From sequence record NZ_CP023526.1: DNA of 64,000 nt; one strand, 5' to 3'. Under the pieces are notes generated by a model that made no database searches, had not been told where the DNA came from, and saw nothing but the letters and a program-made list of their open reading frames with translations. Positions 5,705 through 60,365 of this stretch are shown one piece after another (position 1 is the first letter of the stretch; each line of letters starts with the position of its first letter). This DNA comes from a plasmid. The translations under genes and the position numbers were made by a program.

Positions 5705-6397
5705 TTGTATCATTTACCAATGGTTGAGGAGGCTTCATATGAAAAAAACTCTATTTTCCAATTGGGTGAATATTGTTACTCCAGTAAAAAAGTGTTGATA
5801 GCGAGCATTCAAAATTATCTTGCCAGGACTAATGATGGAGAGGTAAGCCATCCTGAAACTATTCAAAAGCTGCATTACCTTTTGTTAATGCACCCTAAGG
5901 CAAAGTATAAAATAGGCGCAGGCGTCAAAAAATTTTTAGTAACATCTAATGAATTGGGGTCAGGTAAGGGTTTTGAAATATTACGATATGACAATACGAA
6001 GGAACGTTTTTCATACAAAACTTGTATCAATGGTCAAAAACAGACTCAACGCTCAAAGTCCGTTGAGGCCCTTCGTTTTTCTATTAGACAACAAATGATT
6101 GATTTTAGAAAAAGTTTAAAGTTGCCTTTAAACTGTGCAATATCTGGTTTGCCTATACATCATCATGATGAAATCCATATCGATCATCGCATTCCATTTT
6201 GGGAGCTGGTTTTAAATTTTCTTCATGAATATAATTACTCATTAATTCAGTTAGAAACTTGTGGTTCTGGTGAATATTTAAAACTCATTGATGAAAACAT
6301 AATCAAGGAGTTTTATTATTATCATAAAAAAACAGCCATACTTCAACCAACATTAATAAAATATAATATTGAAAAAAGTGGCAGAGCATCATATTGA
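5705..6397 (+). CDS. orphan HNH / His-Me-finger-like nuclease domain protein
   Basis: 230-aa low-GC (~32 %) ORF. The 'HHHDEIHIDHRIPF' motif resembles the HNH H-x-D-H-I-x-P core. No flanking ATPase or methylase gene. Confidence 0.4.
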   Translation: MYHLPMVEEASYEKNSIFQLGEYCYSSKKVLIASIQNYLARTNDGEVSHPETIQKLHYLLLMHPKAKYKIGAGVKKFLVTSNELGSGKGFEILRYDNTKERFSYKTCINGQKQTQRSKSVEALRFSIRQQMIDFRKSLKLPLNCAISGLPIHHHDEIHIDHRIPFWELVLNFLHEYNYSLIQLETCGSGEYLKLIDENIIKEFYYYHKKTAILQPTLIKYNIEKSGRASY

Positions 6398-7255: not shown

Positions 7256-7680
7256 GCCATGACCGCCCGGTTCTGTCCCTGAAGCGAAAAACCGTGACGC
7301 CGGAGACCGGCGATACTTCGTCAGTAATGCCTACCCGCCGCACGGTGATACTGGCTGCCGGGCCGGAGGCAGCGTATCTCCGGTATCCGCGCCAGCCAGT
7401 CCCGGGTGTCCACATGGTCGCCCTCCCCGGCTGATGTCGGCAGAGCAGGCCGTCAGCCTCTTCAGTCAGACCTGGTCGGCGTTGTTTGAGGGGCAGCAAC
7501 TGCGCCCAATGAAGAAAGGTATCCGGGAAGATATCTTTGCCGATATCGCGGCCCGTCCGTGTCCCGAAAAAAGGTACGGCGTGGCTGGCTGAGTCTCACC
7601 CGCAGCGAAACGTACGTGGCAGTACGGGTTTCCGTCAGCCCCGCTTTGGGCCTGACGGGCAATCCGTTGGCGTAGTGACA
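7252..7680 (+). pseudogene. finO: finO (fertility inhibition, ProQ/FinO RNA chaperone) disrupted by at least two frameshifts
   Basis: 'MSHDRPVLSLKRKTVTPETGD' (7252..) matches the F-plasmid FinO N-terminus 'RPVLTLKRKTEGETP'. 'WSALFEGQQLRPMKKGIREDIFADIAARPCP' (7434.., +1 frame) matches '[31 protein letters not shown]'. 'LTRSETY' (7590.., another frame) matches 'ITRSESY'. Confidence 0.75.
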
Positions 7681-7790
7681 AAAATGAAGCCGGGTTCAGC
7701 CAGCAACAAGTGAGGAAAGTGGGAGCCTGAGTGCGGGGTTATCTGTCGCCAGAGACCAGGTTACAGCCTTGAGGGAAACACCCATCATGG

Positions 7791-9095
7791 CTAATCAGGC
7801 AATCTGGACAAGCGTTGTCGTTTATTACAGGCTTTCCAGAGCCAGCTTTCCATGATGTAAACAATACAGGCGACGGCAATCGAGTTTATGGCAGGCACTC
7901 CCCGGGTATATTCGAGGCCTACAACACAACCCGCCAGACTTGCGATAATGGCCATCCAGCCTGTGTCCGGGGTGAAATCAGGCAGGGTGTTACGGGTATT
8001 GCTTTCGCGAAGCGTTTCCCGGTGTGTTTTCAGGACGTAGTAATCCATTAACATCACCCCAATAACGGGCGGAAATATAACCCCCAGCAGTGTCAGAAAA
8101 TCCACGAACATATCCAGAATACCCAGGACGGACAGCGTGGTTCCCAGTATTCCTATGACTATCGTGGTGGGTGTATATCGCAGTCTGATACCGGTGAGTC
8201 CCTCAACCACATTGGCAATGCCCAGCGTCGAAGAATAGAGATTGATATCATTGATACGTAAGGTTGAAAACACCACAATCAGGAGCCCGATATTACCGGC
8301 CCCCTGTGACATAATGGCCACAATGTCGGAAGTGCCTGACACGCGTGATATCAGAATAGCGAGCCCGTTGACAACGACTTCACCGGAAACAACCGTTAAC
8401 AGGGTAATACCGAATACCTGGCGCGAATTTCTGGAATACCGTGTTAAGTCCGGGGTGATCAGGCTGGCGACAATGGCTCCACCAACAACAATAGTAGTAC
8501 CGGCACTAATGGATAACCGATGCCCGGTGGGCGGCATCAACAGGATTTCTGTAATCGTATGGTCTTTTAAGGTGTGGTATGAAATAAAGGCAATCAACGA
8601 AACAAAAAGCGGAACCGCAATCCGCGCCGCAATTTTCAGTGCCCGAAAGCCAAAAGCCACCAGAAAAGTCAGAAACAGGCCTGATGCCGAGGCAGCAAGG
8701 GGAAAACCCGGACGACCATGCAGGGCCGCATTCAACGAGCGGGCAAAAATCGCGTTCTGAACGCCAAACCATCCGAGAAGGCTCACCGCAACCACCAGAC
8801 CGATGAGCACAGAACCGTTGCGCCCGAAGCCGCACCAGCGTGCCAGCAGACTGCCGGAAATCCCCTCCCGCATCCCCGCCAGACCCAGCCCCCAGGTGAC
8901 GAGCCCGAATAATAGTCCTCCTGCAGCAATCGCTACCAACGCTGCCGACAGCGTCATCGAATTACCCAGCACGGCCCCCATCATGAACTGGTCCAGTGCG
9001 GTTATCATTCCCATATGAACGATGGCAACGCTCAGAAAAGACGCTTTTCTGTCCGCTGGTACCCGGCTCAGGGGAAAATCATCAAATTTTAACAT
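7791..9095 (-). CDS. NCS1-family nucleobase permease (cytosine/purine/uracil/allantoin type, CodB-like)
   Basis: 434 aa with about 12 predicted TM segments. Overall resemblance to E. coli CodB. Confidence 0.7.
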   Translation of the reverse strand: MLKFDDFPLSRVPADRKASFLSVAIVHMGMITALDQFMMGAVLGNSMTLSAALVAIAAGGLLFGLVTWGLGLAGMREGISGSLLARWCGFGRNGSVLIGLVVAVSLLGWFGVQNAIFARSLNAALHGRPGFPLAASASGLFLTFLVAFGFRALKIAARIAVPLFVSLIAFISYHTLKDHTITEILLMPPTGHRLSISAGTTIVVGGAIVASLITPDLTRYSRNSRQVFGITLLTVVSGEVVVNGLAILISRVSGTSDIVAIMSQGAGNIGLLIVVFSTLRINDINLYSSTLGIANVVEGLTGIRLRYTPTTIVIGILGTTLSVLGILDMFVDFLTLLGVIFPPVIGVMLMDYYVLKTHRETLRESNTRNTLPDFTPDTGWMAIIASLAGCVVGLEYTRGVPAINSIAVACIVYIMESWLWKACNKRQRLSRLPD

Positions 9096-12046: not shown

Positions 12047-12505
12047 TTAGAGGGCAATATCGGGGGCCCCACTCCGGATGAAGCAGTTTTCGGCCCCCCA
12101 GTCGGGCCAGTGCAAGCGCCACCAGATCGCAGAATGCCAGATGATGCGCAGGATTATTGCCCGATTGTCATTGAATTTCTTCAGGCGAGTCTCAACAATC
12201 GCCTGCATCATATAAATACCGGGATTCTGGTTGAGTGTGCGGTTCCACAGGGAACGATGAGGAAGTGGAAAACACCGTGTGATTCGCTGCACCTTTCTGC
12301 ACAGGCGCGCACCAGGACATAAGCATTTCTCGTGTTGATAGACTCGCCGTTTGCACATTGCCTTACGAGCCTCGTTTAGGCTGTCTGTATCCATCCATTT
12401 AGCAATTCGGTTGTGGTAGTCATTATGGAACAGCGGCTTATCATTGGTAAATTTGGCATTTGTCGTAAGGTGAAGATAATCCAGGCTTGAACATTCCTTC
12501 TCCAT
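12047..12505 (-). CDS. hypothetical basic Cys-rich protein
   Basis: 152 aa, co-directional with and 43 bp downstream of the XRE regulator gene. No recognisable motif. Confidence 0.45.
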   Translation of the reverse strand: MEKECSSLDYLHLTTNAKFTNDKPLFHNDYHNRIAKWMDTDSLNEARKAMCKRRVYQHEKCLCPGARLCRKVQRITRCFPLPHRSLWNRTLNQNPGIYMMQAIVETRLKKFNDNRAIILRIIWHSAIWWRLHWPDWGAENCFIRSGAPDIAL

Positions 12506-12548
12506 GCCACAGTTTCTACCACTATACTCTGCTCTGGATTAACTCGAG

Positions 12549-13040
12549 CTAATCCCCCAGCCCTTTCTCATCAAGAAGGTACTCCCTACGAATGGCTCTT
12601 TGTTTATCCACTGATAACTTATTCAGTTCCAAGGCAAGCTCGATAACCGGCACAGGTAAAGACATCACCTCGCGCCCATCAGAGCCCCTTGCATTTTCAA
12701 CCTGCTGCAGCAATGCATTTAACATTTGTTTGATAACGATACTTCGCTGGGCGTCCGACAAAAACTCGGCCAGAGTCATCATTAACTGCAGGTCTCTTTT
12801 TATACAGCACTCATCATCAGTCTGACTTACATCTTCCCCTAACAGCCAGGCTGAGCTTAGGCCCGTTGCCCGGGCTATTTTTTGTACCTGCTCAATGCCA
12901 TTAGGCACAGAGTCACCCGCAACATAGCCCCGAATAGTGGAATAAGGGATATCACATTTCTGCGCTAAATCGCGCATGGAATCCCCTGTCATAGTGAGCA
13001 GCTCGGCAAGTCTGACACTAAAATTGCTCTTAATCATCAC
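12549..13040 (-). CDS. XRE-family helix-turn-helix transcriptional regulator
   Basis: 'VRLAELLTMTGDSMRDLAQKCDIPYSTIRGYVAG' is a Cro/C1-type HTH. A C-terminal ~90-aa extension follows. Confidence 0.7.
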   Translation of the reverse strand: MMIKSNFSVRLAELLTMTGDSMRDLAQKCDIPYSTIRGYVAGDSVPNGIEQVQKIARATGLSSAWLLGEDVSQTDDECCIKRDLQLMMTLAEFLSDAQRSIVIKQMLNALLQQVENARGSDGREVMSLPVPVIELALELNKLSVDKQRAIRREYLLDEKGLGD

Positions 13041-13409: not shown

Positions 13410-14267
13410 ATGACTCACACCGACGGGCACCAGCCTGACATCTGGCCCGCATACGTTCTGCCCCGGGGCGGCACACCCGTCCCGCCTGGTCCTCACCCCC
13501 ACATCAGGAGATACCCTGTGAACACCCCCCTTTCTGTACCCCGTCACCCGCTTCAGGGCAAAGTCATCGCCATCACCGGGGCCGCCTCCGGGATCGGCCT
13601 CGCCTGTGCCTCCGCCTTTCTTGCCGCCGGGGCCCGTGTTGTCATGATTGACCGCGACGTCGGAGCCCTCCTCCACCACGCAGATACCCTCGGAGAGCAC
13701 GCCCTGCCCCTGCCGGCCGACATCACCGACCCCGACCAGGCCGACGGTCTCGCTGACCACATCCTCTCCCTCGCCGGACGCCTCGATATCTTCCATGCCA
13801 ACGCCGGCATGTACACCGGCGGCCCCTTCGTCGACACCGACCCCGACACCATCGCGAAGCTCCTCGACCTCAACGTCACCGCCACTTTTCGCTGTATCCG
13901 CGCTGTCCTCCCCGCCTTTATCGCCCGACGCGGCGGGGATATCCTCCTCACCAGCTCCGTCGCCGGGGTCGTCCCTGTGGCACACGAGCCCGTCTATACC
14001 GCCTCCAAGTTTGCCCTCCAGGGCTTCGTCCACAGCCTCCGCCGGCAGCTCTCTCCCCACGGGGTCCGCGTCGGGGCCATCCTTCCCGGCCCGGTCAGCA
14101 CCGCCCTGCTCACCGCCTGGCCCGAGGCAAAACGCCGCGAGGCCCTGGAGACCTGCGCCCTCCTGCAGCCCGCTGATGTCGCCGAAGCCGCGCTCTTTAT
14201 GGTCACCCGGCCCCACGACGTCGTCATCCGGGATCTTGTGATCCTCCCGGCCGGGGTGGATCTCTGA
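13410..14267 (+). CDS. short-chain dehydrogenase/reductase (SDR) family oxidoreductase; start uncertain (possibly GTG 13518)
   Basis: It has the Rossmann motif 'ITGAASGIGLA' and the catalytic 'YTASKFAL'. GC is about 68 %, atypical for the rest of the window. Confidence 0.85.
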   Translation: MTHTDGHQPDIWPAYVLPRGGTPVPPGPHPHIRRYPVNTPLSVPRHPLQGKVIAITGAASGIGLACASAFLAAGARVVMIDRDVGALLHHADTLGEHALPLPADITDPDQADGLADHILSLAGRLDIFHANAGMYTGGPFVDTDPDTIAKLLDLNVTATFRCIRAVLPAFIARRGGDILLTSSVAGVVPVAHEPVYTASKFALQGFVHSLRRQLSPHGVRVGAILPGPVSTALLTAWPEAKRREALETCALLQPADVAEAALFMVTRPHDVVIRDLVILPAGVDL

Positions 14268-14541
14268 CGCCTTCCTGCCCGGATACTCAGACAGCTGTTC
14301 TCACGGAGACCTCAACGACGCCGGGAACCCGGCCCCGGCGCCTGAGGACAAGTCCGGAGAGGTGCCCTGTCCGCCAAAAGTCGTGCCCCATGGCGCTTAT
14401 GGGACTATGACTCACGTCCTTCTACTTTCATCAAAGTGTTGATATTCGTTACTCTTTAGAAAGAGTCCCCCCCTTCTCAATAATCAATGCCGTATGGACT
14501 TAACAACGGCCGCTATGAGCGAGAAACGGAAGTTAACATGT
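13797..14541. repeat. copy 2 of the >=745-bp direct repeat (copy 1 at 1..745)
   Basis: See copy 1. Identity ends at 14541. Confidence 0.9.
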
Positions 14542-14778
14542 CTATTAAAGTGGTTAAATTTAGTAATCCACTATAAGGCTTTTTTAGATCTTTTGTGATG
14601 AAACGCTGAGTTTAGACAGAGATAGCTGCATAACTTCGAGTATTATCAATAGTTAGATTGATGTGAAGAGATTAAGGTCACATACTTTTTTCTAGTTCTA
14701 TAAGTAAATTATTCTAAAAACCTAACTGGATGAAAGTTTAAAGCACCTTTTCAAAATTTTTAACGAAAGGACAAATCT

Positions 14779-16644
14779 ATGGCAAACTCAACGAATCAGG
14801 GAAGAAAAAGTAAGAGCCCGCTTGACGATAAAACTACTATTGATGATTTACACAGCATCCCCCTTGCATCGTTGTTAGACGGTTATGAAGAACTGTGTGG
14901 TTTAAATATGTGGCTTGAACTAAGCAAATTAGCATCTACAGCTTTAAACCGCGATGACCACTCTGCTCACAGAGCATATAAACTCTTAGCGACGCTATGT
15001 TCAATGCGAATGTCATCTGACGATCCGGCCGATACTTGGCATCCAAGATGGCAAGATGCAGAAAATAAAATGCTCACGCCTCAAGATATAAAAAGTGATT
15101 ATAACTCACTGCTTTCAGATATTGTTAATTTTATTAATAACTTGGCATTGAAAGGCCGAATTGCAGATATCGTATGGTCAAATGACCGTAAAGAATACAA
15201 GTGTGGCATCGAAGCGGTCAAAGCATATTCTAATATAGTCCTTGAGCATATAAGCAAAAAATGCGATACCGATAATTTCACAAAGTTATTTGAGTTGATG
15301 AATTTATTACAGAGAGCCTTGTGCATAAATGGGACGATGGGTAAGCGCGACCATATTCCAAGTTATCTAGCAAAAGCTTTTGAACAATTTTATATCTTCT
15401 CTTATCAAAAATGTATATATGTAGCATTTTCTAGGATTGGAGAGTTAGCTATAGGTTATAAAATAAAAACATGGCAAGAAGTAGCTGATGATTCAGAAAA
15501 TCTTGTTAACAGGGGAAGTATAAATGATTATCCAGAAGCTCGGAAGAAAGTGTGGGCACTTGCAGCACAATGTCATCTGAAAAATAAAAACACTGAAGGT
15601 CGCAGGCACTGTTTAGAGGAGTATTCAAATGAAACTCTAAGAATGTGTGAACAAGTTTCAAGCTATGCTGCGAAAGCTTCTTGGGTACGACAGGCTATAA
15701 CAGAACTTCAAATAGCGGGTGGGTTTCAGGATAAAATTGATATTCTTCGAGTTAAATTAAGGGACTTACAACTTGCCAGCCTCTCTGAGATGTTTCAATA
15801 TGACATGCCTTGCGATCTATCAGAAGAATACAATGAAACAATTAATCAGTTCACAAACATTTTCCTCCCCGAAATACTGTATTGCTTTGCAATATTATCT
15901 AAATCACCAACTATTGAAAGCTTAAAAGAAGAAATTTTAAACAACAATAGTAGTGGAATATCCTTTTTATTCCCCACTTCAATATATCTTGACCAAGAAG
16001 GCAAACCTGTAGCTAAAACATGCAGTCACTCTTCAGAGCAAGAACCTAAAAATGAGTGGCTGAAATCGAACTCTATTATACATATGAGCAGCCTTAGGTA
16101 TTTTATTGTTGAATCAAGAATTAAACCAGCCCGACATGCTACGATGCTGCAATACGCGGTTGAGCTAAGACATTTCGATGTTATTGTGAGTTTAAGTAGC
16201 TTTGTTCCTTTTGGCCATGAACATCTCTTCAGTTTAGGTTTTTCCCGTTTATTCCAAGGTGATTTGGCATCAGCAGCATATATACTAATTCCTCAGCTTG
16301 AGAATACATTACGCCATGTTTTATTCTGTAGTGGAAGAGATTCATTCAAATTTTCGGATGGCGGTCTTCAGGAGGATCGTTCTTTGTCGGGGCTATTGGA
16401 AAATAAACGTAGTGATTTATTAGAAATATTTGGTGAGGATATAGTTCATGAGATTGATATGCTTTTCCATTATAAAGCAGGCCCTTCGCTAAGGCATAAA
16501 GTTGCACATGGAAAATTGTCGGCTGGAGACTGTTATCAGCCAGATTGTATCTACGCTTGTTGGTTTATTTATAGACTCATTTGTTTACCTATTCTTCATT
16601 GCTGGAAAGACCAAGTAATACCGCAAATTGAGATGACGCTTTAA
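14779..16644 (+). CDS. large hypothetical protein with a C-terminal Rx4HG (HEPN-like) motif; candidate abortive-infection/RNase protein
   Basis: 621 aa, about 35 % GC. RBS AAAGGA 7 nt upstream. '...GPSLRHKVAHGKLS' near the C-terminus fits the HEPN R-x4-6-H signature. Confidence 0.8.
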   Translation: MANSTNQGRKSKSPLDDKTTIDDLHSIPLASLLDGYEELCGLNMWLELSKLASTALNRDDHSAHRAYKLLATLCSMRMSSDDPADTWHPRWQDAENKMLTPQDIKSDYNSLLSDIVNFINNLALKGRIADIVWSNDRKEYKCGIEAVKAYSNIVLEHISKKCDTDNFTKLFELMNLLQRALCINGTMGKRDHIPSYLAKAFEQFYIFSYQKCIYVAFSRIGELAIGYKIKTWQEVADDSENLVNRGSINDYPEARKKVWALAAQCHLKNKNTEGRRHCLEEYSNETLRMCEQVSSYAAKASWVRQAITELQIAGGFQDKIDILRVKLRDLQLASLSEMFQYDMPCDLSEEYNETINQFTNIFLPEILYCFAILSKSPTIESLKEEILNNNSSGISFLFPTSIYLDQEGKPVAKTCSHSSEQEPKNEWLKSNSIIHMSSLRYFIVESRIKPARHATMLQYAVELRHFDVIVSLSSFVPFGHEHLFSLGFSRLFQGDLASAAYILIPQLENTLRHVLFCSGRDSFKFSDGGLQEDRSLSGLLENKRSDLLEIFGEDIVHEIDMLFHYKAGPSLRHKVAHGKLSAGDCYQPDCIYACWFIYRLICLPILHCWKDQVIPQIEMTL

Positions 16645-16935
16645 CTTTATGTAATATTTTATTTTTTTGCAAATATGGAAATTAAAAATATTTCTTATGC
16701 GCCTGAATGAAGCTGCTGCAACTTAGAGCGCGTACACTTAAGAACTCCCGCTGGCGATGATGGCAGACGACAACTTTTGACAACTCGCCCCCATCACCAA
16801 CTGGCTGACTTGTTCCCGGCTGATTAACACATCATGATATCAGCAATGTCCTCTTCTGGCACTGAAGACGGTCAGATTAAGTCTGGCCCTGCGCCACATC
16901 TATGTCAGGCCAAATCTGAGATAATACAAATAAAG

Positions 16936-18105
16936 TTATCGTCTGGCGGTCGCTGAAAGAGTCTCATCCTGTGCCAGTAAAGTTATCACATCACCAGCTA
17001 TTTCTGGTCTGATACCAGGCGTTTTATAGGCCGCATACGCTGCAACGGATAATGGGCTCCAGGCATGCACCCCAGCGATACGTTTTACCTCCTCGATAAC
17101 CTTAAACGTATCGTTTTCCAAAGCCAGTCCTAAACGGGCTGTATCCAGATAAATGCGCTGAACTCCAGAGATATGCGTGAACTTTTTAAGTTCTGCGGTA
17201 ATAATTCGCTGCGCTTCCACACCGATAGACGAGCCTCCTTCAACGACCCCTGTCAACCCAACAAGCTTACCTCCATCACTACGAGTATTGTCATCTTTGA
17301 CTCTTGGAAGCGGCACTAAGACATTCAACTCTACATCCTGCTGAAGTAACTCAAGCAGTTCGGGCAAAAGCTCAGTTTTGATGACACCTTTTAAAGCAAC
17401 TGCTCTTTTAGCTAGAGTGACAGGGGACTGTCCCAACCGCGCCGACATAGAAATAAGACAACTCGCGATTATGAAAATATCGCATTCCCCTATCAAAGGG
17501 GCACACTCGGCCCGGAAAGATTGCTCGTCACGAAGTGTAGGATTTACTTTTTCAGGTTTCCTAATTTTTGAATTCGGCTGCTTCTTGCTACATCCACACA
17601 AAGCATCCTGTGCATTTCGGGTTAGTATGCTGATGCTTTTAAGTAGATCCTCACCGCCCTCAAGGTTGGCAACCATTTTCTGCATATTTTCGAGCCTGCC
17701 AAGCATCTCGGGATTAGCATTACCCGAAGCGATCTTCTCGCTGATGTCATTAAGATTCCTCAGAACACCAGTAACAATCTGCGATGGAGCAGGATCTGAG
17801 GCTTTCAGTTCATGGCTTTTTTTGATTTCTTTCTCCATCAACTGGAGCGCCTGCTTCCAGTCGGTTTGTACACCGGCTTTAAGGGTCTCAAGATTAAGAA
17901 TAACGGTGCGAAGACGTTCACTTTTAGCTAATGGTATAGGTTCACCATTCTTTTTACCTACTTTCAGCCAGTGAACTAAGGAAACGAAGTCAGCTTTAGC
18001 CGTCGTAGCAAGTCCATTGATAACGCGCTGCCGTGCTTCAGGTGTAGAGTGGTTTGTTCTCGGCGCTGGCAGACGATCATTTTTGTGCACTATTGACCTC
18101 TTCAT
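16936..18105 (-). CDS. hypothetical protein (no recognisable domain; basic N-terminus, alpha/beta C-terminal half)
   Basis: 389-aa ORF convergent with the 621-aa gene. The segment 'CDIFIIAS...GKLVGLTGVVEGGSSIGVEAQRI' suggests a Rossmann-like fold. Confidence 0.7.
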   Translation of the reverse strand: MKRSIVHKNDRLPAPRTNHSTPEARQRVINGLATTAKADFVSLVHWLKVGKKNGEPIPLAKSERLRTVILNLETLKAGVQTDWKQALQLMEKEIKKSHELKASDPAPSQIVTGVLRNLNDISEKIASGNANPEMLGRLENMQKMVANLEGGEDLLKSISILTRNAQDALCGCSKKQPNSKIRKPEKVNPTLRDEQSFRAECAPLIGECDIFIIASCLISMSARLGQSPVTLAKRAVALKGVIKTELLPELLELLQQDVELNVLVPLPRVKDDNTRSDGGKLVGLTGVVEGGSSIGVEAQRIITAELKKFTHISGVQRIYLDTARLGLALENDTFKVIEEVKRIAGVHAWSPLSVAAYAAYKTPGIRPEIAGDVITLLAQDETLSATARR

Positions 18106-18316: not shown

Positions 18317-19201
18317 TTAGTTCCACACACTTTTTGAGAGTTCCGGTTTTTCAGCCATCAGCCGGTACTCTTCTGGCGTCAGGTTGTTCAGGGATTCATG
18401 AGGCCGCTCGTTGTTATATTCCATCAGCCAGCTCTCTGTAATTTCCCGTACTTCATTCAGTGTTCTGAACAGGTAAAAATCCAGGATTTCTGTCCGGTAT
18501 GTCCGGTTGAAGCGTTCGATAAAAGCATTTTGTGTAGGTTTTCCCGGCTTTATAAATTCTAGCTGCACACTATGCTCTTCGGCCCATTGTGCCAGCGCCA
18601 GAGATACAAGTTCCGGACCATTATCCATCCGCATTTTAAGTGGATAGCCGCGGTTTGCCACGATCCGCTCCAGTACCCGGACAACACGTTGAGCCGGGAT
18701 GTTCAGGTCGATTTCTATCGCCAGCGCTTCACGGTTAAAATCATCCACTACATTGAAGGTCCGAAAGCGTCTGCCACAGACCAGCGCATCGTGCATAAAA
18801 TCGATGGACCAACTCTGGTTTAACGCTTGCGGCGTCGCCAGTGGTGCAGGGTTACGCACTGGCAGCCGCTGTTTTCCCTTACGACGAAAATTCAGTTTCA
18901 GCAGGCAGTAAATCCGGTGAACGCGTTTATGGTTCCAGGCGTTACCCTGCCTGCGCAGTAACTGAAAAAGCTTCTTAAAACCATAACGCGGGTAGCGCTC
19001 TGCCAGCTCAGTCAGCATCTGGATCACCGGTTCATCCCGCCGGATATCGGGCTGGTAAAAATACACCGTCCTGCTCAGCGATAACGTCCTGCAAGCCTGG
19101 CGTAAACTCATGGCAAATTGCGCCGTCAGATAGCTGACGAGTTCACGCTTTATCGCTGGTTTTAAAGCTTTTTTTCGATAACGTCTTTCAGGGCCCGGCA
19201 T
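18317..19201 (-). CDS. IS3-family transposase OrfB (DDE integrase core)
   Basis: rve-type core with D...D...E spacing ('WSIDFMHD', 'MRMDNGPE', 'ERFNRTYR'). Confidence 0.85.
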   Translation of the reverse strand: MPGPERRYRKKALKPAIKRELVSYLTAQFAMSLRQACRTLSLSRTVYFYQPDIRRDEPVIQMLTELAERYPRYGFKKLFQLLRRQGNAWNHKRVHRIYCLLKLNFRRKGKQRLPVRNPAPLATPQALNQSWSIDFMHDALVCGRRFRTFNVVDDFNREALAIEIDLNIPAQRVVRVLERIVANRGYPLKMRMDNGPELVSLALAQWAEEHSVQLEFIKPGKPTQNAFIERFNRTYRTEILDFYLFRTLNEVREITESWLMEYNNERPHESLNNLTPEEYRLMAEKPELSKSVWN

Positions 19202-19449
19202 TCAAGACTGAGATCGGCAAACATCTGTTTGAGACGACGATTTTCGTCCTCGAGATCTTTCATCTTTTTGATATCAGAGGCTTCCATACCGCCAAACTTC
19301 GCTTTCCAGTTGTAATAACTGGCTTCTGAGATACCGGCTTCACGGCAGACATCTTTGACGGTCCGGCCAGCTTCGACGGACTTTAGCACGGCGATGATTT
19401 GGTGTTCGGTGAATCGGGCTTTACGCATGGCGATCTCCTCAGGGGACAT
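19162..19449 (-). CDS. IS3-family transposase OrfA (HTH)
   Basis: 'RTVKDVCREAGISEASYYNWKAKF' HTH followed by a leucine-zipper 'DLEDENRRLKQMFADLSLE'. Confidence 0.85.
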   Translation of the reverse strand: MSPEEIAMRKARFTEHQIIAVLKSVEAGRTVKDVCREAGISEASYYNWKAKFGGMEASDIKKMKDLEDENRRLKQMFADLSLECRALKDVIEKKL

Positions 19450-19986: not shown

Positions 19987-21999
19987 TCAATCATCCTGAG
20001 TTATCAACCCCTCACCCCGTGAACGCCAGGTAGCCCTTACATAGTCCTGAAAATGATAACCCTCTCCTAAAATAAGATTATCTGCGTGGTCAGAGACTAT
20101 CACCTGCGGGGTCACTCCAGTTTCTTCTCCTGTTTTTTCACAGAATTTTGCCAGTTGGATAAACATATTCGTTACCGCTTTCATGTCGTCATCCAGAATG
20201 TTTTCACGCCGGTTTTGTCTTGCAAGCTCTTTTGGCCTGAACTCATCCGCATCGTCCAGTGCCGCGGGGAAATAAACCTGCGTCGGTTGGTCTAAAAACA
20301 GAATTGGTGGGATTTTACATCCTCTTTTGGAATGCGCCGCAAACTGATAATGTAAAGCCATGAAGAGCGCCAGATGCGAGTAAAGCCAGTTGGCTCCACT
20401 TCCCATCGCGCGCAGATAAACACGATTTTTGGGATCCTGTTGATACCATAAATCGAACGTCTCAGTATCAAAACGGAGAGCCGAGGGCTTGTAGGTCTCT
20501 TCAAAATCGAAGAGATCACCATACTCACACATTTTGTCATTAATGCTGATTGAGAGCTCATGCAAACTACGTTCGACCTTAAATGCTTCCAGATGGCCTG
20601 AAAGCCGGATGATCTCAGCGCGCCAGTAGGCTTCCAGTTCGTCGAGATCTGTTACCGGTCTGTCCAGTTGCTCCTGGATCGCCAGCTCAAGCCGAATTTT
20701 AGCTTTTATTGCTTGTTCGTTTATCGAACCGCCGGCTTGGAGCCTGTGAAACTCTTCATCAAATGGCTCAATACTCTCCTGAATCAGGGAAAGGGAATCA
20801 TTGAGGTCATCCAGCTCCTCCTCTAACTTCCGGCGTTCTCCTTCAAAGCTCTCACGCGCATACGTAGAGAATGCAAGCTCATCGTTCAACCATGTTATTG
20901 CCTCCGTAAGCTTGTTGACCTCTACGACGGGTAAAGAGTTTTCTGCTTTACACATCGGGCAATAGGCGTGAGACAACGTCGCGGAGTCGGGCAGATGGCT
21001 CTTGGACATACCTTGCGTGAATTGCATTGCAGAAGCTCTGGAATCTTTGATTAGCCTCAACTGACCCTGAACTTTCCGTTTTTTTCCCAGCACTTCAGCT
21101 CGCTCTTTCTCAAGCTTGTCTCTTTGCACTTCGATCTGATCAGAGAGGACATTCACGCTGACTGTGCTCCTGGAAATTTGTTCAAGCCACATGGCCGGAT
21201 GGGCGTAGATGGCTTCACCCTGACCATCAATAAGTGGCTTACCCGTGAGGCTCAAATACTCTTTAAGGTAACGGTTATAGCGGTCGGTCAGTAAAGCTTT
21301 TCGTTGAGCCTGCTGTGGGATCTGACGCTGTACTCTGCCCAGTTCAAATTTAGCGAGCTCAAATTCTTTATGGAGATCAAAATAATCTTCATTCACCAGA
21401 CCCATCAGGATCTTGAAGTGCTTGATAGCCTGATCTCGTTTTTCCTTTTCGTCAAAGCGGTAAAAGATTGCGTGCTTATTAGCAATCAGATTCTGGTGCT
21501 GTAGCATAAATGAAGAAAAACTGCGCACGGTGGGAGTTGGGGATTTGTGTCGACCTGACGACAGCTTAAAGGGGGTCTCATCGACATTTCCCATGATTAC
21601 GCCAAAATGCCGGCCCAGACTTTTTTTGAACGCGCTCAGAGGCATGTCCTGTTCAGAACCGAATAACGCGGCGGGGTCTTCTATAAGCGCTGACAGATGG
21701 TCGGGATCGACACCCGGGACATCAATCAAAAAGCATCGATCAGATTTCTTTTTTCTCGCGGCGATAACTGCATAGCGTGTGAACTGAAGCGCAATAAAAA
21801 ACGTCTCTGCGCGTTCGGTGATAATCCCAATAGGTATCGTGTCTTCAGAACTACCCATGCAGTAATCGAAAATTTCGAGTAACGCGCTCTTTCCTGTTGA
21901 AGACTTGCCTGTAATGACATTCAGTCCAGGTTTGAGACTCACTTTATGAATCTTATTTCGCGTATCTGCTACACCGATATATTTTACGAAGCATGTCAT
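19987..21999 (-). CDS. SMC-like ABC ATPase (Rad50/SbcC fold), LmuB/DdmC-like
   Basis: 670 aa. N-terminal Walker A 'NVITGKSSTGKSALLE', a long central coiled-coil and a C-terminal Walker B/D-loop 'PILFLDQPTQVYFP'. Confidence 0.8.
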   Translation of the reverse strand: MTCFVKYIGVADTRNKIHKVSLKPGLNVITGKSSTGKSALLEIFDYCMGSSEDTIPIGIITERAETFFIALQFTRYAVIAARKKKSDRCFLIDVPGVDPDHLSALIEDPAALFGSEQDMPLSAFKKSLGRHFGVIMGNVDETPFKLSSGRHKSPTPTVRSFSSFMLQHQNLIANKHAIFYRFDEKEKRDQAIKHFKILMGLVNEDYFDLHKEFELAKFELGRVQRQIPQQAQRKALLTDRYNRYLKEYLSLTGKPLIDGQGEAIYAHPAMWLEQISRSTVSVNVLSDQIEVQRDKLEKERAEVLGKKRKVQGQLRLIKDSRASAMQFTQGMSKSHLPDSATLSHAYCPMCKAENSLPVVEVNKLTEAITWLNDELAFSTYARESFEGERRKLEEELDDLNDSLSLIQESIEPFDEEFHRLQAGGSINEQAIKAKIRLELAIQEQLDRPVTDLDELEAYWRAEIIRLSGHLEAFKVERSLHELSISINDKMCEYGDLFDFEETYKPSALRFDTETFDLWYQQDPKNRVYLRAMGSGANWLYSHLALFMALHYQFAAHSKRGCKIPPILFLDQPTQVYFPAALDDADEFRPKELARQNRRENILDDDMKAVTNMFIQLAKFCEKTGEETGVTPQVIVSDHADNLILGEGYHFQDYVRATWRSRGEGLITQDD

Positions 22000-22463
22000 A
22001 ATGATTTGAATCCTAACGTCCTGTAAATGGTAACGATATCCACTTCGGCGAACAAAATCGCCAGGCGGCTAGCAGCGGTTAAATGCACCGGATTAGCACC
22101 GCCTGTATCGACGGCGCGCAGAGATTTGACGGAAAGACTGTCAGTGATTTCGATACTTTCTGCCGTCTGGAGAAAAAGCAACGAGGCATGTGTGAGGGAT
22201 TTATTTTGCTGCACCAGGTGCGTCAAACCCAGCAGTCGCGACTGCTGGGAGCACATTGTTCTCAGACTGCTGGATCCCTTAGCATGAATCAGAAAAGTCT
22301 GCATAGGAGGAGACAGCAGCATTGGGAGTACGAGATAACTCAGCAGCAGGTCTCGCTCACGTGAGGCATATTTTTCATAAAATTGGTGAAGACAGGGTGC
22401 AAGCAAAATAGGGGATCGCTGAAGCGTAAAGAGATGATTGATGGCCTTCGGTTTCATTCCCAC
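21996..22463 (-). CDS. small middle component (LmuC/DdmB-like) of the three-gene ATPase operon
   Basis: 155-aa ORF. Its stop overlaps the ATPase start (ATGA), and its start overlaps the upstream gene's stop. Confidence 0.6.
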   Translation of the reverse strand: MGMKPKAINHLFTLQRSPILLAPCLHQFYEKYASRERDLLLSYLVLPMLLSPPMQTFLIHAKGSSSLRTMCSQQSRLLGLTHLVQQNKSLTHASLLFLQTAESIEITDSLSVKSLRAVDTGGANPVHLTAASRLAILFAEVDIVTIYRTLGFKSL

Positions 22464-23788
22464 AGCCTCCAGTGGAACTCTACGTCGCTATCCTCTGGTT
22501 CTTCATCGGCAAGCAGGTGATAAATTCCATTCCGGAAAGTAGCGGGTGTTGAATTGTAACGGCTAAATACAGTAACGGCTTCACCCTGACGTTCGTAATA
22601 AAAAGCAAGGGACTCGTCCTTTAAGTCTTCCATCGAGGACTTTTTAAATTTAATCATGGCGCTCTTCCTTTTACTGAGATGGCGCCTTAGCTCACTGTCC
22701 CAGTATTCATCAACTTCCCGCTGTGAGGTGTCGAAATTCTCAATTAGCTCATAGAGATATTTTTCTGCATGTAAAATGTCTCCCGCAGCCAGAACGACAT
22801 CTCGCTCAGTGCCCCCAATTTCAGTCAGTTTTTGTACATAACGCTCATTGCTGACGTTCATTTTTGTGGCTTTGTCTTTGATTGCATTACTATCGATAAT
22901 CGGAAACACTACCGTGCCATGCATGTAACGGCGGGTCAGCTCAGCAAATTTTTTATCAAACTCCCCGACCTTAAATTTCCACCCTTCCGTAATCTTGATT
23001 GCATCTGTCATAAAACCAAACATATCGTTCAGAAAATCATTTTGTTTATTTGAAAGGATGCCCTTGAGGTAACGTTTCTTATATCTAGCTATCCGATCGT
23101 TCAGGCCTGGCTGCTCAGTCCAGATCCTGATTTTAGGCAGCAACTCAAGCAACAAATCACGCTTCTTCTCATCCATAATGGTACGTTGCTGGCGAACGGT
23201 TTTTGACGGCTCAGCAGGACGGGAGGCTTCTTTCTCGGCTGGCGGACGCTCATCTTTATTTTCTTCTTTACGCCTCTGTGCCTCAGTGAAACGGGCTTCT
23301 GAGCTTTTATGAATATCCGTCAGCACTTTCAGTCGATCATTGGCGGATAATTCATTCCAGCCATCAAAGGCGGTTCTTTCACTGTAAGGCTGCGTGGTCA
23401 GAAGGATAAGGTCCACGAACTGGGTATGATCAAAGTCCGGGTCAAGCCAGTTGTTAAGCGTATTCCAGAAGTTTTCATGTGAATCGGTCAATTCATCCGC
23501 GTAATTTTTGACTTCTGTCTGTGACTTGCCAGGGATCGAAACATCTCCAAGCACTTCAATCCATAGCTCATCCCCATCCTCGAGGGCGTGGCAATGCTCG
23601 ATGGCTACGTGGATCTGGTATACCATGGATTCAAAAAGTTTTGTCGCATCAACTTTTAGTTTTTTTGTCACACTTCTACCCCGGGTTGAATCCACTAACT
23701 TCAGAAAATTTCCGCGTTTTCTTAACATTGCCGGTGAGTTCTCTAATGGAGAAAATATCTGAGGCGAGTTATCTGATGCGGAAAACAC
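22454..23788 (-). CDS. predicted effector (LmuA/DdmA-like) with an N-terminal nuclease-like domain; GTG start
   Basis: 444 aa. The N-terminal '...HVAIEHCHALEDGDELWIEVLGDVSIPGKSQTEVK' could be a PD-(D/E)xK-type nuclease core (not confirmed). The rest is helical with a charged linker. Confidence 0.6.
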   Translation of the reverse strand: MFSASDNSPQIFSPLENSPAMLRKRGNFLKLVDSTRGRSVTKKLKVDATKLFESMVYQIHVAIEHCHALEDGDELWIEVLGDVSIPGKSQTEVKNYADELTDSHENFWNTLNNWLDPDFDHTQFVDLILLTTQPYSERTAFDGWNELSANDRLKVLTDIHKSSEARFTEAQRRKEENKDERPPAEKEASRPAEPSKTVRQQRTIMDEKKRDLLLELLPKIRIWTEQPGLNDRIARYKKRYLKGILSNKQNDFLNDMFGFMTDAIKITEGWKFKVGEFDKKFAELTRRYMHGTVVFPIIDSNAIKDKATKMNVSNERYVQKLTEIGGTERDVVLAAGDILHAEKYLYELIENFDTSQREVDEYWDSELRRHLSKRKSAMIKFKKSSMEDLKDESLAFYYERQGEAVTVFSRYNSTPATFRNGIYHLLADEEPEDSDVEFHWRLWE

Positions 23789-25216: not shown

Positions 25217-26497
25217 TCAACGCAAATGTGCGATCGTTTCAGGACTATCTTCAAAAATAAACGGATTGAGGAACACTCGGCCCCACAAGAAGTTGCGATC
25301 CACTTCGCTCAGTGACGCCTCACGACATACTTCTGCCCAGTTTTCGTGGACCGTACGGATGCTGTGTGTGATAATTTCAATCGCTTCCTGCTCACTCAGC
25401 AGAAATTTAGCCGCCGCCGACAGACAAACTGCAAGATTGCTCTTTCGGTTTTCACCAATAATCAGCATTGCCTGCGTCGCTTCATTACCAGAACGCCCCT
25501 GGGGACAAATATCATAGGCCGGTGTCAGACTCAGTTTGTTGCCATCCCAAAATGCGGCATGATTTCTGGCGTGATCGTCAGTGTTACCACTAATAATATT
25601 AAAAACCAGACGCCCGAATAGTTCACGTAACGTCTCTTTAGGTGCATCAAAGCGCTGGCGAATAATATCCGTCAAATCCTCATAACTCGCATATCTTGCC
25701 ATCATCTCATCAAGACCAAAAATGGTCAGCGCAGAGACCATCAGGCGACGCTGCCAGCCTGTATGGCTTCGTATACGGTCAAAGCGTTCAATCAGTATGA
25801 CGTCTTTACCCGCGGTATGTCGGAGAAGAACAGGTGCAACATTTAATCCAGCACAGGCAGCCAGTCGCATAGCGATATATTCAGCTTTAACAACATTATA
25901 AGTATCTGTGGAAGAAGAAAACTTTGCGATAAATTTATGAGCCCCGGACTCTATCATTGCCTTTGGCCGCGCACCGCCTAATGAACTACCGTGAAAAAGC
26001 GCTTGTTCCAGTTCCGGAGTTAACGGTACTCCACTTTCAACCATTGATGCAGCCTGCATCAACTCTTCAAGAGATGCACTTTGGGACGCACGCGGCACAT
26101 ACTCCGTTGCGGAGCGCTGGAAGTCGAGTCCTCCAATCCTCTCTGAGCCAGATTCAAGCAAATATGTCAGTTCATCCAGTCTGTCAGGATCAGCGTCCCT
26201 GCCCTGAGCTCCCATCAGCCGGTTCAGAATGACTCGACGCCCCCAGGCATCCGGGGCAGCATCACGTAATGCACTCGCCTGCTGTAGACCTGGTGCGGGC
26301 AAAATCGCACCCCGAACCAACGGGAGTTCTGGCTCATAGACAGGGATCGCATCTTCCCGTTCCAGGTAACTGCGCCCGTAGTTGAAAATAAATCTGTTGT
26401 CATCACGAGTTAACACACCTGCGACAATCGGTTGAGTTGCCCCAGGCAACCAGATCCATACGTATGCCAGACCGGGGCTGTTATCAGAAGTCATCAT
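25217..26497 (-). CDS. hipA: HipA-family serine/threonine kinase toxin
   Basis: 426 aa. 'ISGNTDDHARNHAAFW' matches the HipA catalytic loop D-x-H-x-K/R-N. The N-terminal region also resembles E. coli HipA. It overlaps hipB by 14 bp. Confidence 0.8.
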   Translation of the reverse strand: MMTSDNSPGLAYVWIWLPGATQPIVAGVLTRDDNRFIFNYGRSYLEREDAIPVYEPELPLVRGAILPAPGLQQASALRDAAPDAWGRRVILNRLMGAQGRDADPDRLDELTYLLESGSERIGGLDFQRSATEYVPRASQSASLEELMQAASMVESGVPLTPELEQALFHGSSLGGARPKAMIESGAHKFIAKFSSSTDTYNVVKAEYIAMRLAACAGLNVAPVLLRHTAGKDVILIERFDRIRSHTGWQRRLMVSALTIFGLDEMMARYASYEDLTDIIRQRFDAPKETLRELFGRLVFNIISGNTDDHARNHAAFWDGNKLSLTPAYDICPQGRSGNEATQAMLIIGENRKSNLAVCLSAAAKFLLSEQEAIEIITHSIRTVHENWAEVCREASLSEVDRNFLWGRVFLNPFIFEDSPETIAHLR

Positions 26498-26852
26498 TTA
26501 TCACCTTCTTAGAGTGATACACTGAGCGTGGCATCAGCGATAAAGTTTTCTCTGCATTTACGGTATGTAACGTCATCGATGCCTGATCGGGCGTAAAAAG
26601 TGAAACACCAACTATGGTAGCCAGTTCAAATACCGCGCCAATTGCACACCCCATGTCCCCTTCTTCCGCACGATAAACGAGTCCACGCGATACCCCGGCA
26701 CGTTCAGCCAGCTCTTCAACGGTCAGTTTACGTTCAATACGCGCTGTACGAATCATCAGCCCCAGTAGTCGTGCAGCATCTCGGCTATAACGAGAGTAGG
26801 TTCGAGTAGAGGGTTTTGCCATTACAATCTCACTGTTCCATAAATAGAGCAT
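26484..26852 (-). CDS. hipB: HipB-like XRE-HTH antitoxin (alternative ATG at 26822)
   Basis: 'LLGLMIRTARIERKLTVEELAERAGVSRGLVYRAEEG' HTH, immediately upstream of and overlapping hipA. Confidence 0.65.
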   Translation of the reverse strand: MLYLWNSEIVMAKPSTRTYSRYSRDAARLLGLMIRTARIERKLTVEELAERAGVSRGLVYRAEEGDMGCAIGAVFELATIVGVSLFTPDQASMTLHTVNAEKTLSLMPRSVYHSKKVINDDF

Positions 26853-31549: not shown

Positions 31550-32180
31550 ATGACCGAATCAAGCGATTATGAACCCGTCCAGATCTTTATTGGCGTTGAC
31601 GTCGATAAAGATACCAATCACGCTGTTGCCATCAATCGTTCAGATAACCGCCTGTTCGATACAGAATTATTCAACGACGAAACCAGACTCAGGTCGCTGA
31701 AATTTGACCTTAAACAACATGATCAGAGACAGCTGGTTGTTGACCAGCCAGCCACCATTGGGGCGCTACCTGTCACCGTTGCCCGCTCGGAATGCGTCCT
31801 TGTCGGATACCTCCCCGGCCTGGCAATGCGCCACATCGCCGACTTACCCGCCGTGAAGCCAGGACAGATGCTCGAGACGCTGCCATCATCGCCGGACTCT
31901 CCATGCTCTGCGACTTCGATGATGATCTCACCGCACAAACAATGCAGTCCAGCCCCCCGTATCCGCAGTCTGTTAACCCAGAGACATCCTGCTCTGGAGC
32001 GCGTTCGCGTTTCTCGACTGGTTCACCCGGCCGTCCATAATCCGCTCCAGCAATATACCTCATCCGAAAAACTCGTTTTACCGGGGAAGAAGAAGCCGGC
32101 AATCCGGCTCTGCAAACTCGAGCCCTGCCTGAGAAAGCACCTTGCTGCAGATATCACCCTGGCACTGATACAGTAAGCCG
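31550..32180 (+). pseudogene. IS110-family transposase gene, frameshifted/truncated
   Basis: The N-terminus 'IFIGVDVDKDTNHAVAI' and the later frame 'DARDAAIIAGL' match the IS110 DEDD transposase N-terminal domain. Reading it through requires frame changes. Confidence 0.6.
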
Positions 32181-33692: not shown

Positions 33693-34892
33693 ATGCTTGA
33701 TAAGGCGCATCAGATTTACAAGGTGGCACAGCGCTCGGAGAAGATGCTTCTGGGGTTAACAGAGCAAATCCAGAATCAGAAAGAAGAACTCCAGGAAAAT
33801 ACCTATTTTCAGGTGTATGCCAAAGCAGCCCTTTCCAGACTGCCTAAACTTACCCGGGCTAACGTGGACTATGCCGTCAATGAGATGGAAGAACAGGGTT
33901 ATGTGTTTGATAAACGGCAGGCCGGTACATCAACCAAGTATGCGATGTCTATTCAGAACATTATTGACATCTACCACCATCGGGGAGTGCCAAAATACCG
34001 CGACAGGCATGAGAAAGCTTTCACAATCTTCATCGGTAATCTGAAGGGCGGGGTTTCAAAAACGGTTTCTACTGTTTCACTTGCCCATGCCTTACGTGCC
34101 CACGCCCATCTTTTATACGAAGATTTACGCATCCTTGTCATTGATCTTGATCCCCAGTCTTCTGCGACCATGTTCCTGAACCATACGCACTCTGTGGGCA
34201 CTGTGGAAGCCACTGCCGCGCAGGCTATGTTACAGAATGTTGACCGTGAGACACTGCTGCGTGAATTTATTGTGCCATCTATCATCCCGGGTGTGGATGT
34301 GATACCAGCGTCAATCGATGATGCATTTATTGCCTCAGGATGGGAAAAGCTGTGTCATGAGCATCTACCCGACCAGAATATTTATGCGATTCTGCGACAG
34401 AATATTATCGATAAGGTTGAAAAGGATTACGACTTTATCTTTATAGACAGTGGGCCCCATCTGGATGCGTACTTATCCAATGCCATTGCAGCATCAGATA
34501 TTCTGATTACTCCGATCCCTCCGGCGCAGGTTGACTTTCACTCGACCCTGAAATATCTCACACGGGTTCCTGAACTGATCACAATGATTGAAGAGTCTGG
34601 TTTTGCTACTCGACTGGTAGGCAATATCGGATTTATGTCGAAGCTGTTAAATAAAGCCGATCATAAATTTTGTCATAGCCTGGCAAAGGAAATTTTCGGC
34701 GGTGACATGTTGGATATCGCGCTCCCCCGACTGGATGGTTTTGAAAGGTGCGGTGAGTCTTTCGATACCGTCATTTCAGCCAACCCTTCCACCTACGTAG
34801 GTAGCAGTGAAGCCTTGAAGAATGCCCGTGCCGCCGCAGAAGATTTTGCAAAAGCGGTATTCGATCGCATTGAATTTATCAGAACAAATTGA
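33693..34892 (+). CDS. parA: plasmid partition ATPase ParA (P1/P7 type, type Ia, N-terminal HTH)
   Basis: 399 aa. It is collinear with P1 ParA as I recall it ('HKVAQRANRMLNVLTEQVQLQKDEL...' vs 'YKVAQRSEKMLLGLTEQIQNQKEEL') and has the deviant Walker A 'NLKGGVSKT'. Confidence 0.9.
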   Translation: MLDKAHQIYKVAQRSEKMLLGLTEQIQNQKEELQENTYFQVYAKAALSRLPKLTRANVDYAVNEMEEQGYVFDKRQAGTSTKYAMSIQNIIDIYHHRGVPKYRDRHEKAFTIFIGNLKGGVSKTVSTVSLAHALRAHAHLLYEDLRILVIDLDPQSSATMFLNHTHSVGTVEATAAQAMLQNVDRETLLREFIVPSIIPGVDVIPASIDDAFIASGWEKLCHEHLPDQNIYAILRQNIIDKVEKDYDFIFIDSGPHLDAYLSNAIAASDILITPIPPAQVDFHSTLKYLTRVPELITMIEESGFATRLVGNIGFMSKLLNKADHKFCHSLAKEIFGGDMLDIALPRLDGFERCGESFDTVISANPSTYVGSSEALKNARAAAEDFAKAVFDRIEFIRTN

Positions 34893-34901
34893 GATTAAGA
34901 G

Positions 34902-35873: not shown

Positions 35874-35879
35874 TTCTTT

Positions 35880-36030
35880 CCAGCCTCTGGCGATTTCAGC
35901 CTGAAATCGCCTCTAATTTTCTTGTATTCCGGCACATACCGCTCAAAAATTCTCCAAGTCATTTTCATTGATAACTATATGATTAGTATAGAAATTCAAG
36001 ATTAATTTCAGCCTGAAATCGCCAAGATGC
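35880..36030. promoter_or_regulatory. parS: parS-like centromere: heptamer box A (ATTTCAG/ATTTCAC-like) and hexamer box B (TCGCCA) repeats flanking an AT-rich (IHF-like) spacer
   Basis: 'ATTTCAGCCTGAAATCGCC' occurs twice (35893.. and 36004..), about 110 bp apart. Similar boxes lie upstream of parA ('TGGCGATTTCACCCTGAAATTCAC' at ~33385), consistent with ParA autoregulation. Confidence 0.6.
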
Positions 36031-38580: not shown

Positions 38581-38603
38581 CAAACAGAATCGGGATAATG
38601 TAA

Positions 38604-58661: not shown

Positions 58662-58687
58662 GGCGTACTTCTGGAAGGTTGAAACAA

Positions 58688-59890: not shown

Positions 59891-59951
59891 CTTTTTGGAA
59901 GGTAATTCTCTTTTACAGTTGTGATGCTGTTTAATTATTAATTAAGGAATT

Positions 59952-60305: not shown

Positions 60306-60365
60306 TAACGTCTCCGGCCTTATTCGGGGATACCGGGTAAGGCCGGATCATAAAGAGACAGCACA

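Follow-up and report, generated by a model that had tools for sequence, protein, structure and literature searches.

A mobile single-gene cassette in Cedecea neteri encodes a DUF7380-DUF4209 protein, a candidate self-contained HEPN RNase of abortive-infection type

Within a window of 64,000 nucleotides (nt) taken from sequence record NZ_CP023526.1 (Cedecea neteri), a single open reading frame (ORF) on the plus strand at positions 14779-16644 was analysed together with its surroundings. It starts with ATG and encodes a protein of 621 amino acids (aa; WP_061279146.1) which, as judged from its sequence, belongs to the DUF4209/C6orf70 HEPN family and to the PADLOC family PDC-S39. A preliminary description of this DNA had reported a large ORF of low GC content with its own ribosome-binding site, no operon partner and a convergent neighbour, and the sequence bears out each of these points. 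The GC content of the ORF was measured at 37.3% (GC3 30%) vs 47% across the window, and the gene lies in a block of approximately 2.27 kb (~14430-16700, 36% GC) with sharp borders, flanked by a short-chain dehydrogenase (SDR) gene of 66-72% GC on one side and by sequence of 46-52% GC on the other. The SDR gene, at 13410-14267 (+), is the upstream neighbour on the same strand; it directly abuts the 36% GC cassette, with a gap of 511 nt to the 621-aa gene, and the downstream neighbour at 16936-18105 (-) is convergent. The Shine-Dalgarno block, 7 nt ahead of the ATG, is kept in the related loci of Erwinia and Enterobacter kobei, where the start codon is GTG. Promoter and terminator scans returned 13 promoter-like sites (7.7 +/- 3.0 in shuffled sequence) and 1 terminator-like site (2.0 in shuffled sequence), both near chance for an AT-rich stretch. 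The features of the locus are as follows.

14629-16875, plus strand: mobile single-gene cassette, DNA shared with relatives in unrelated contexts (blastn)
14766-14771, plus strand: Shine-Dalgarno sequence AAAGGA, read from the sequence
14779-16644, plus strand: ORF encoding the 621-aa protein
14824-15360, plus strand: DUF7380 domain, aa 16-194 (Pfam PF24098, E 5.7e-33)
15361-15948, plus strand: helical-repeat (TPR/SNAP-like) middle region, ~aa 195-390
15979-16020, plus strand: predicted beta-hairpin, aa 401-414 (DSSP strands 401-404 and 410-414), between the solenoid and the HEPN domain
16039-16641, plus strand: C-terminal HEPN-like helical domain, aa 421-621
16297-16569, plus strand: Pfam DUF4209 (PF13910), aa 507-597, 23.5 bits vs a gathering cut-off of 22.3
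16300-16314, plus strand: Ex3[KR] motif E508-x3-R512, both residues invariant in 61/61 relatives
16492-16509, plus strand: Rx4H motif R572-H-K-V-A-H577, with the polar H573 after R; R572 and H577 invariant in 61/61 relatives
16645-16875, plus strand: conserved 3' flank moving with the gene, ~80-90% identical to the Erwinia and E. kobei loci, after which similarity stops

The protein combines DUF7380 and a TPR-like solenoid (~aa 16-390) with a HEPN domain of the DUF4209/C6orf70 type. A named Pfam domain thus occupies the N-terminal part in which no recognisable motif had been seen before, and the middle helical region (~aa 195-390) is presumed to be a sensor or regulatory solenoid. DUF7380 is present in all 61 diverse relatives examined; the margin of the DUF4209 match is small for the 621-aa protein itself, yet 55 of the 61 relatives match the model (best E 2.7e-14). 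Both hidden Markov models (HMMs) of PADLOC PDC-S39 give full-length matches (PDLC05011, E 7.9e-87 over aa 17-607 of 621; PDLC05012, E 5.3e-81), and the protein also belongs to phrog_5183 of PHROGs (E 1e-93), a family annotated as of unknown function. A scan of NCBIfam gave no meaningful match. The resemblance to Abi_2 suggested in the preliminary description did not hold up, as a Pfam scan at E<=1 returned DUF7380 and DUF4209 only, with no match to Abi_2 (PF07751), and the PADLOC scan gave no Abi match. In a census of the HEPN superfamily, DUF4209 was placed in it as the C6orf70 family, which is mostly bacterial, is fused to TPRs, occurs in operons related to restriction-modification (R-M) and retains the Rx4-6H motif (Anantharaman et al., 2013; PMC3710099). 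In the 621-aa protein, too, the DUF4209 domain is joined to TPR-like helical repeats.

According to the same census, the sequence hallmarks of HEPN domains are Rx4-6H, a polar N, D or H directly following its R, and an acidic Ex3[KR] further upstream (PMC3710099). All three were found in the 621-aa protein and are kept in its relatives; together with the DUF4209 match above the gathering score, this upholds the earlier reading of the C-terminal motif as a HEPN signature. The segment SLRHKVAHGKLSAGDC (aa 570-585) includes R572-x4-H577. By itself, Rx4-6H occurs at chance level, with 3 instances in the protein vs a mean of 2.7 in shuffled copies, and the C-terminal instance is meaningful because it is invariant across the family. 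In an alignment of 61 relatives that an exhaustive profile search had recovered, which share 21-58% identity with the query, no column other than M1, E508, R512, G568, R572 and H577 is invariant; the position following R572 is occupied by H (49 sequences), N (11) or D (1). The HEPN domain therefore carries, by prediction from these columns, a complete and conserved active-site set (E508, R512, R572, H573 and H577). Near-invariant positions in the N-terminal half are R127, D130, W133, Y150 and R179, all within DUF7380, as well as Q331 and the hairpin residues D405 (59/61) and G408 (60/61).

The invariance of R, H and the Ex3R pair, combined with a length kept at ~620 aa, indicates purifying selection. 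These observations bear on the possibility that the HEPN domain is non-catalytic, acting as a scaffold or nucleotide-binding module, or that the gene is a decaying passenger without current function. Some HEPN families do bind ligands instead of cleaving RNA (PMC3710099), and the support from fold searches described below is only moderate. Non-catalytic HEPN families, however, typically lose Rx4-6H (PMC3710099), whereas here the R, H and Ex3R residues persist in 61 distant sequences, the ORF is intact in several genera, and the length of about 620 aa is held in most of the best 150 representatives listed (of 1,103 at E<=1e-30), most of them being 600-640 aa long and matched over nearly their full length. 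A non-catalytic or decaying protein is accordingly regarded as hardly probable.

In both predicted models, the Rx4H motif falls within a short helix (571-576) directly ahead of a long hydrophobic last helix (588-620), the same position before the last helix that it takes in canonical HEPN domains. This last helix probably corresponds to the "1 TM" (one transmembrane segment) noted for E. coli relatives; on the basis of the models, it is taken here as the buried last helix of the bundle. Fold searches with the model gave values of 7.0, 6.8 and 6.1 for Csm6, 6.5 for the HEPN protein AF0298, 6.3 for AbiA, 5.4 and 5.3 for the HEPN toxins of HEPN-MNT pairs, and 4.5-4.8 for RnlA, LsoA, Las1 and Csx1. 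Foldseek of the same model against the Protein Data Bank (PDB) returned nothing at E<=0.001, and its weak matches of highest probability were again HEPN proteins. The fold evidence for a HEPN bundle in the model is thus moderately strong, being consistent without being decisive.

The preliminary description had treated the protein as an orphan, which proved false. An exhaustive HMM search of 1.84 billion cluster representatives (50% clustering) recovered 3,756 relatives at E<=1e-3, of which 1,103 reach E<=1e-30. A word-indexed protein search, even with a profile query, returned only 18 relatives, with 50-94% identity, from Erwinia, Enterobacter, Rouxiella, Pantoea and related genera, and a scan of a genome collection with an alignment of the close relatives gave 7 loci. 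The family extends over Proteobacteria, Bacillus, Deinococcus, a Candidatus Chlorohelix plasmid and a plasmid of the archaeon Natrinema; 29 plasmids in PLSDB carry it, in Klebsiella, Salmonella, Aeromonas, Bradyrhizobium, Deinococcus, Bacillus, Candidatus Chlorohelix and Natrinema. At the DNA level, the locus had no megablast match in complete E. coli genomes or in PLSDB plasmids.

The distribution of the family is relevant to the idea of a cellular RNase of RNA processing or stress response, with no role in conflicts with mobile elements, as proposed for the eukaryotic C6orf70/ERMARD branch. That branch was followed back to the last eukaryotic common ancestor, and its predicted role is in RNA decay linked to the endoplasmic reticulum (ER) (PMC3710099), which lends the idea some weight. 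In bacteria, on the other hand, the distribution is patchy, with copies of >90% identity in Cedecea, Kluyvera ascorbata, Klebsiella pasteurii and Buttiauxella; the GC content of the gene is foreign to its surroundings; and the copies occupy variable mobile-element contexts with no conserved housekeeping neighbourhood. A purely cellular role is therefore considered very unlikely.

Comparison of loci by blastn delimited the unit that moves. Similarity to Erwinia sp. MYb535 (89.6% identity) extends over 14629-16875 and similarity to an E. kobei prophage (79.9% identity) over 14730-16805, ending at the borders in each case. The shared cassette consists of the gene with 50-150 nt upstream and 160-230 nt downstream, contains one gene only and coincides with the low-GC block. 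The 160-230 nt past the stop codon are conserved between genera as strongly as the coding region; in this 3' flank (16645-16875), searches for a conserved ORF, an Rfam match, a significant folding z-score and covariation among three sequences were all negative. Flanking repeats that would mark a transposable unit were sought, and none was convincing. Comparison of the Erwinia and E. kobei loci revealed no conserved small ORF or antitoxin-like partner in the cassette flanks.

The genomic contexts of the copies are diverse. The Erwinia copy lies between a glycosidase and unrelated genes, and the Atlantibacter copy between sugar-metabolism genes. In E. kobei the gene is located in a lambdoid prophage, directly past the replication genes O and P of lambda type, and the Pantoea vagans copy is carried by a conjugative plasmid beside ParA, resolvase and Tra genes. 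The Rouxiella copy has a Schlafen/AlbA_2 protein, a resolvase and MazEF as neighbours, the Yersinia and Dyella copies adjoin integrases, and the Stakelama copy adjoins an AAA_15/AAA_21 (OLD-like) ATPase. Members in phage collections include ORF612 of P2-EC46 and a protein of phage vB_EcoM-569R9 encoded between gpA and gpQ, that is, in the P2 old/tin hotspot. No neighbour gene was constant across the contexts examined. The "single gene" of the preliminary description is thus substantiated by the recurrence of the same cassette of ~2.1-2.2 kb in unrelated contexts without a common neighbour.

Such locations allow two further explanations. In the first, the protein would be a HEPN RNase serving competition between mobile elements or their maintenance, for example through exclusion of rival plasmids, prophages or satellites or through post-segregational stabilisation, and would not protect the host from lytic phages. 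The presence of the gene on prophages, conjugative plasmids and integrase-flanked islands agrees with this, as does the non-defence cargo also borne by the P2 hotspot; a homologue is, moreover, absent from the systems listed as validated on the eight-phage panel of Rousset et al. (2022). These locations are, however, equally typical of true anti-phage genes, neither an antitoxin-like partner nor a conserved small ORF accompanies the gene, and the PADLOC family goes back to genes nested within R-M, BREX or DISARM systems. This explanation is judged unlikely. In the second, the protein would work for its carrier, a phage or plasmid, as an anti-defence or takeover factor; degradation of transcripts from the host or from rivals would be one example. 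It has its own PHROG family and sits in accessory regions of prophages; yet it also occurs at chromosomal positions and between housekeeping genes with no phage nearby, and the P2 locus that it occupies is the one holding old, tin and other validated defence systems (Rousset et al., 2022). A factor of this kind is thought a shade less probable still than a cellular RNase. A cellular, a carrier-benefit and a non-catalytic role all fit poorly with the invariance of the catalytic residues, with the length being kept and with a distribution that is patchy and mobile.

The interpretation preferred here is that of a horizontally mobile abortive-infection protein in which sensor and HEPN RNase are contained in one chain, and it is held with moderate confidence, slightly above even. 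The locations typical of defence genes count in its favour, namely the P2 hotspot, a lambdoid prophage, conjugative plasmids, adjoining integrases and the proximity, in this window, of a Lamassu-like system. HEPN RNases are metal-independent, usually dimeric and leave 2',3'-cyclic phosphate ends (PMC3710099). By analogy with this known behaviour and with validated single-protein HEPN defence genes, the protein would be made constitutively from its own promoter and kept inactive until the solenoid part senses a trigger during infection by a phage or another mobile element. The HEPN domain, probably dimeric like other HEPN RNases, would then cleave RNA without metal, leaving 2',3'-cyclic phosphate ends, and this cleavage would stop translation and abort the infection. 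In this proposal no antitoxin or partner gene would be needed, because control would reside within the same polypeptide. A bolder extension would see in the DUF7380/TPR-like solenoid a new phage-sensing module that gates a C6orf70-type HEPN RNase in one polypeptide, in the protein a bacterial counterpart of the human ER protein ERMARD, and in the 3' flank a cis-acting RNA that helps to silence the gene; this combination is considered decidedly doubtful, less probable than the competition or maintenance role.

Previous surveys have repeatedly pointed to the family. Two DUF4209 systems, with 193 and 76 occurrences, are listed in the study of the E. coli P2 hotspot (Rousset et al., 2022). The PDC set of PADLOC was assembled from genes found inside BREX, DISARM and type I R-M systems ("guilt by embedding"; Payne et al., 2024), and DefensePredictor predicts E. 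coli DUF4209 proteins to be novel defence genes, with log-odds of 4.3-8.1. Several findings weigh against the abortive-infection interpretation. In the literature search, no member of the family was found to have an experimentally demonstrated function; PDC-S39 appeared only in lists of PADLOC output, including those for P. aeruginosa PAO1 and an O157:H7 strain, and no report of an anti-phage test of it was found, while DUF7380 was nowhere mentioned and DUF4209 was met in main text only in the 2013 HEPN census. All 145 PDC candidates are called untested by their authors (Payne et al., 2024). The "Putative HEPN" construct pFR103, from E. coli S88, was cloned and stands in the table of "additional tested systems" and not in the table of validated ones (Rousset et al., 2022); its printed 399 N-terminal residues equal the vB_EcoM-569R9 protein except for one residue. 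Three E. coli DUF4209 accessions and the term DUF4209 itself are absent from the complete tables of tested and validated systems of DefensePredictor. On the structural side, a profile search of PDB sequences gave no match to any solved structure, and R572 and H577 were placed by the secondary structure of the models, not paired in space from coordinates. RNase activity is predicted for bacterial and eukaryotic members of the DUF4209/C6orf70 family alike.

The neighbourhood in the window agrees with the earlier statement that the gene sits beside other defence genes. Within 10 kb downstream lie the convergent 389-aa gene, whose homologues are associated with R-M, an IS3-family transposase (18317-19449) adjoining a Lamassu-like operon, that operon itself, 3.3 kb from the 621-aa gene, and HipA. 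The Lamassu-like (ABC-3C) system at 19987-23788 on the minus strand comprises three genes.

Within 19987-23788, minus strand: LmuA-like protein, 444 aa
Within 19987-23788, minus strand: MC3 middle component matching LmuC, 155 aa
Within 19987-23788, minus strand: LmuB with DUF3732, 670 aa (PADLOC E 3.5e-113)

The 389-aa gene (16936-18105, minus strand) was considered as a partner of the 621-aa gene and rejected, being unrelated to the genes downstream of the other loci and having homologues that sit behind type I R-M operons without a DUF4209 gene. Its protein has no Pfam, PADLOC or PHROG match and 69 relatives in Enterobacterales; homologues of the gene lie directly behind hsdR of type I R-M operons or beside an HNH protein. 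In Yersinia aleksiciae and Edwardsiella tarda the homologue begins 37 nt past hsdR, and in Enterobacter asburiae it is found beside an HNH_2 protein and a resolvase; a frameshifted fragment of a gene of this type also lies just upstream of the Erwinia DUF4209 copy (7664-7869 of that locus). The 389-aa gene may itself be associated with defence and have gone unrecognised so far.

Further along, a HipA-type kinase toxin of 426 aa is encoded at 25217-26852 (-), with an overlapping upstream small ORF of 122 aa that could be its HipB-like partner. Upstream of the cassette, the DUF3223 protein at 5705-6397 (+) matches HamC in PADLOC (E 5e-16), with no obvious Hachiman helicase adjoining. At 12047-13040 (-), an XRE-type helix-turn-helix (HTH) protein of 163 aa with a weak match to CapH, the CBASS regulator (E 1.5e-6), is followed by a 152-aa ORF, and the two could form a regulator of the CapH/CapP type for which no cognate system is seen. 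Segments ranging from 36% to 72% GC make up the window, a mosaic that suggests repeated horizontal insertions.

The second half of the window, 32000-64000, contains only 16 ORFs of >=130 aa in 32 kb, which points to many short or disrupted genes, and an IS110-family transposase lies at 31550-32176. A plasmid-type ParA (HTH_54 + AAA_31), ParB and a RepB/Rep3 initiator are encoded at 33693-39616 (+), the initiator having ~71% DNA identity to those of Rahnella and Pantoea plasmids of 470-575 kb. On account of these genes, the 721-kb contig of Cedecea neteri may represent a megaplasmid or a chromid, or a plasmid may be integrated in it. A polyhydroxyalkanoate (PHA) synthesis cluster (reductase, thiolase and PhaC) occupies 57879-62099.

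For this window, the main outcome is a correct annotation: the 621-aa gene is an ordinary family member in a mosaic defence island of Cedecea neteri, adding one member to a known candidate family and holding nothing surprising to a specialist. The family had already been flagged by four independent bioinformatic routes, namely the 2013 HEPN census, the survey of the P2 hotspot, the guilt-by-embedding approach and a protein language model. It counts ~3,750 representatives, occurs frequently in the E. coli P2 defence hotspot and has its HEPN domain in common with human ERMARD. Identification of the trigger and the RNA target would turn this recurrent candidate into a defined single-protein immune sensor, and its characterisation could make the C6orf70 branch accessible to biochemistry for the first time.

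Among known systems, Csm6/Csx1, RnlA/LsoA, AbiA and HEPN-MNT have solved structures with 4-16% sequence identity to the 621-aa protein. Unlike Csm6/Csx1 and the C-terminal domain of AbiA, the protein comes without a CARF domain and without a reverse transcriptase. Identity with RnlA/LsoA or with a HEPN-MNT toxin-antitoxin pair was rejected, as the cassette has one gene and no co-oriented neighbour of the RnlB/LsoB or MNT kind. Compared with the eukaryotic C6orf70 (ERMARD) proteins, the Rx4H motif, the polar residue after R, the Ex3R pair and the TPR-like fusion are shared across the DUF4209 family, as is, among its relatives, the hydrophobic last helix, read there as a transmembrane segment; however, the eukaryotic members are predicted to act at the ER membrane in core cell biology, whereas the gene described here is a mobile bacterial solo gene.

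Also related are the P2-hotspot homologues represented by pFR103, the vB_EcoM-569R9 protein and ORF612 of P2-EC46. With 612-644 aa, they have the same architecture and the same motifs (LRHKLAHG and IRHTMAHG) and fall in the same family (tblastn E 1e-57 and 2e-67), although they are 24-28% identical and occupy a fixed prophage hotspot between gpA and gpQ. PDC-S39 agrees in its single-gene layout and full-length match to both HMMs, but the PDC set was derived from genes inside R-M, BREX or DISARM operons, while the 621-aa gene lies outside any such operon and stands alone in its island. Validated single-protein HEPN defence genes such as HEC-08 (DUF3644-HEPN with Zn ribbons), DS-11 (CBS and HEPN) and PD-T7-4, in which mutation of the Rx4-6H histidine abolishes defence, fall into other HEPN families and carry other accessory domains, and the protein has no PADLOC match to them. 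By analogy, they nevertheless would share with the 621-aa protein the proposed logic of a single polypeptide in which a HEPN effector is combined with a regulatory or sensing domain.

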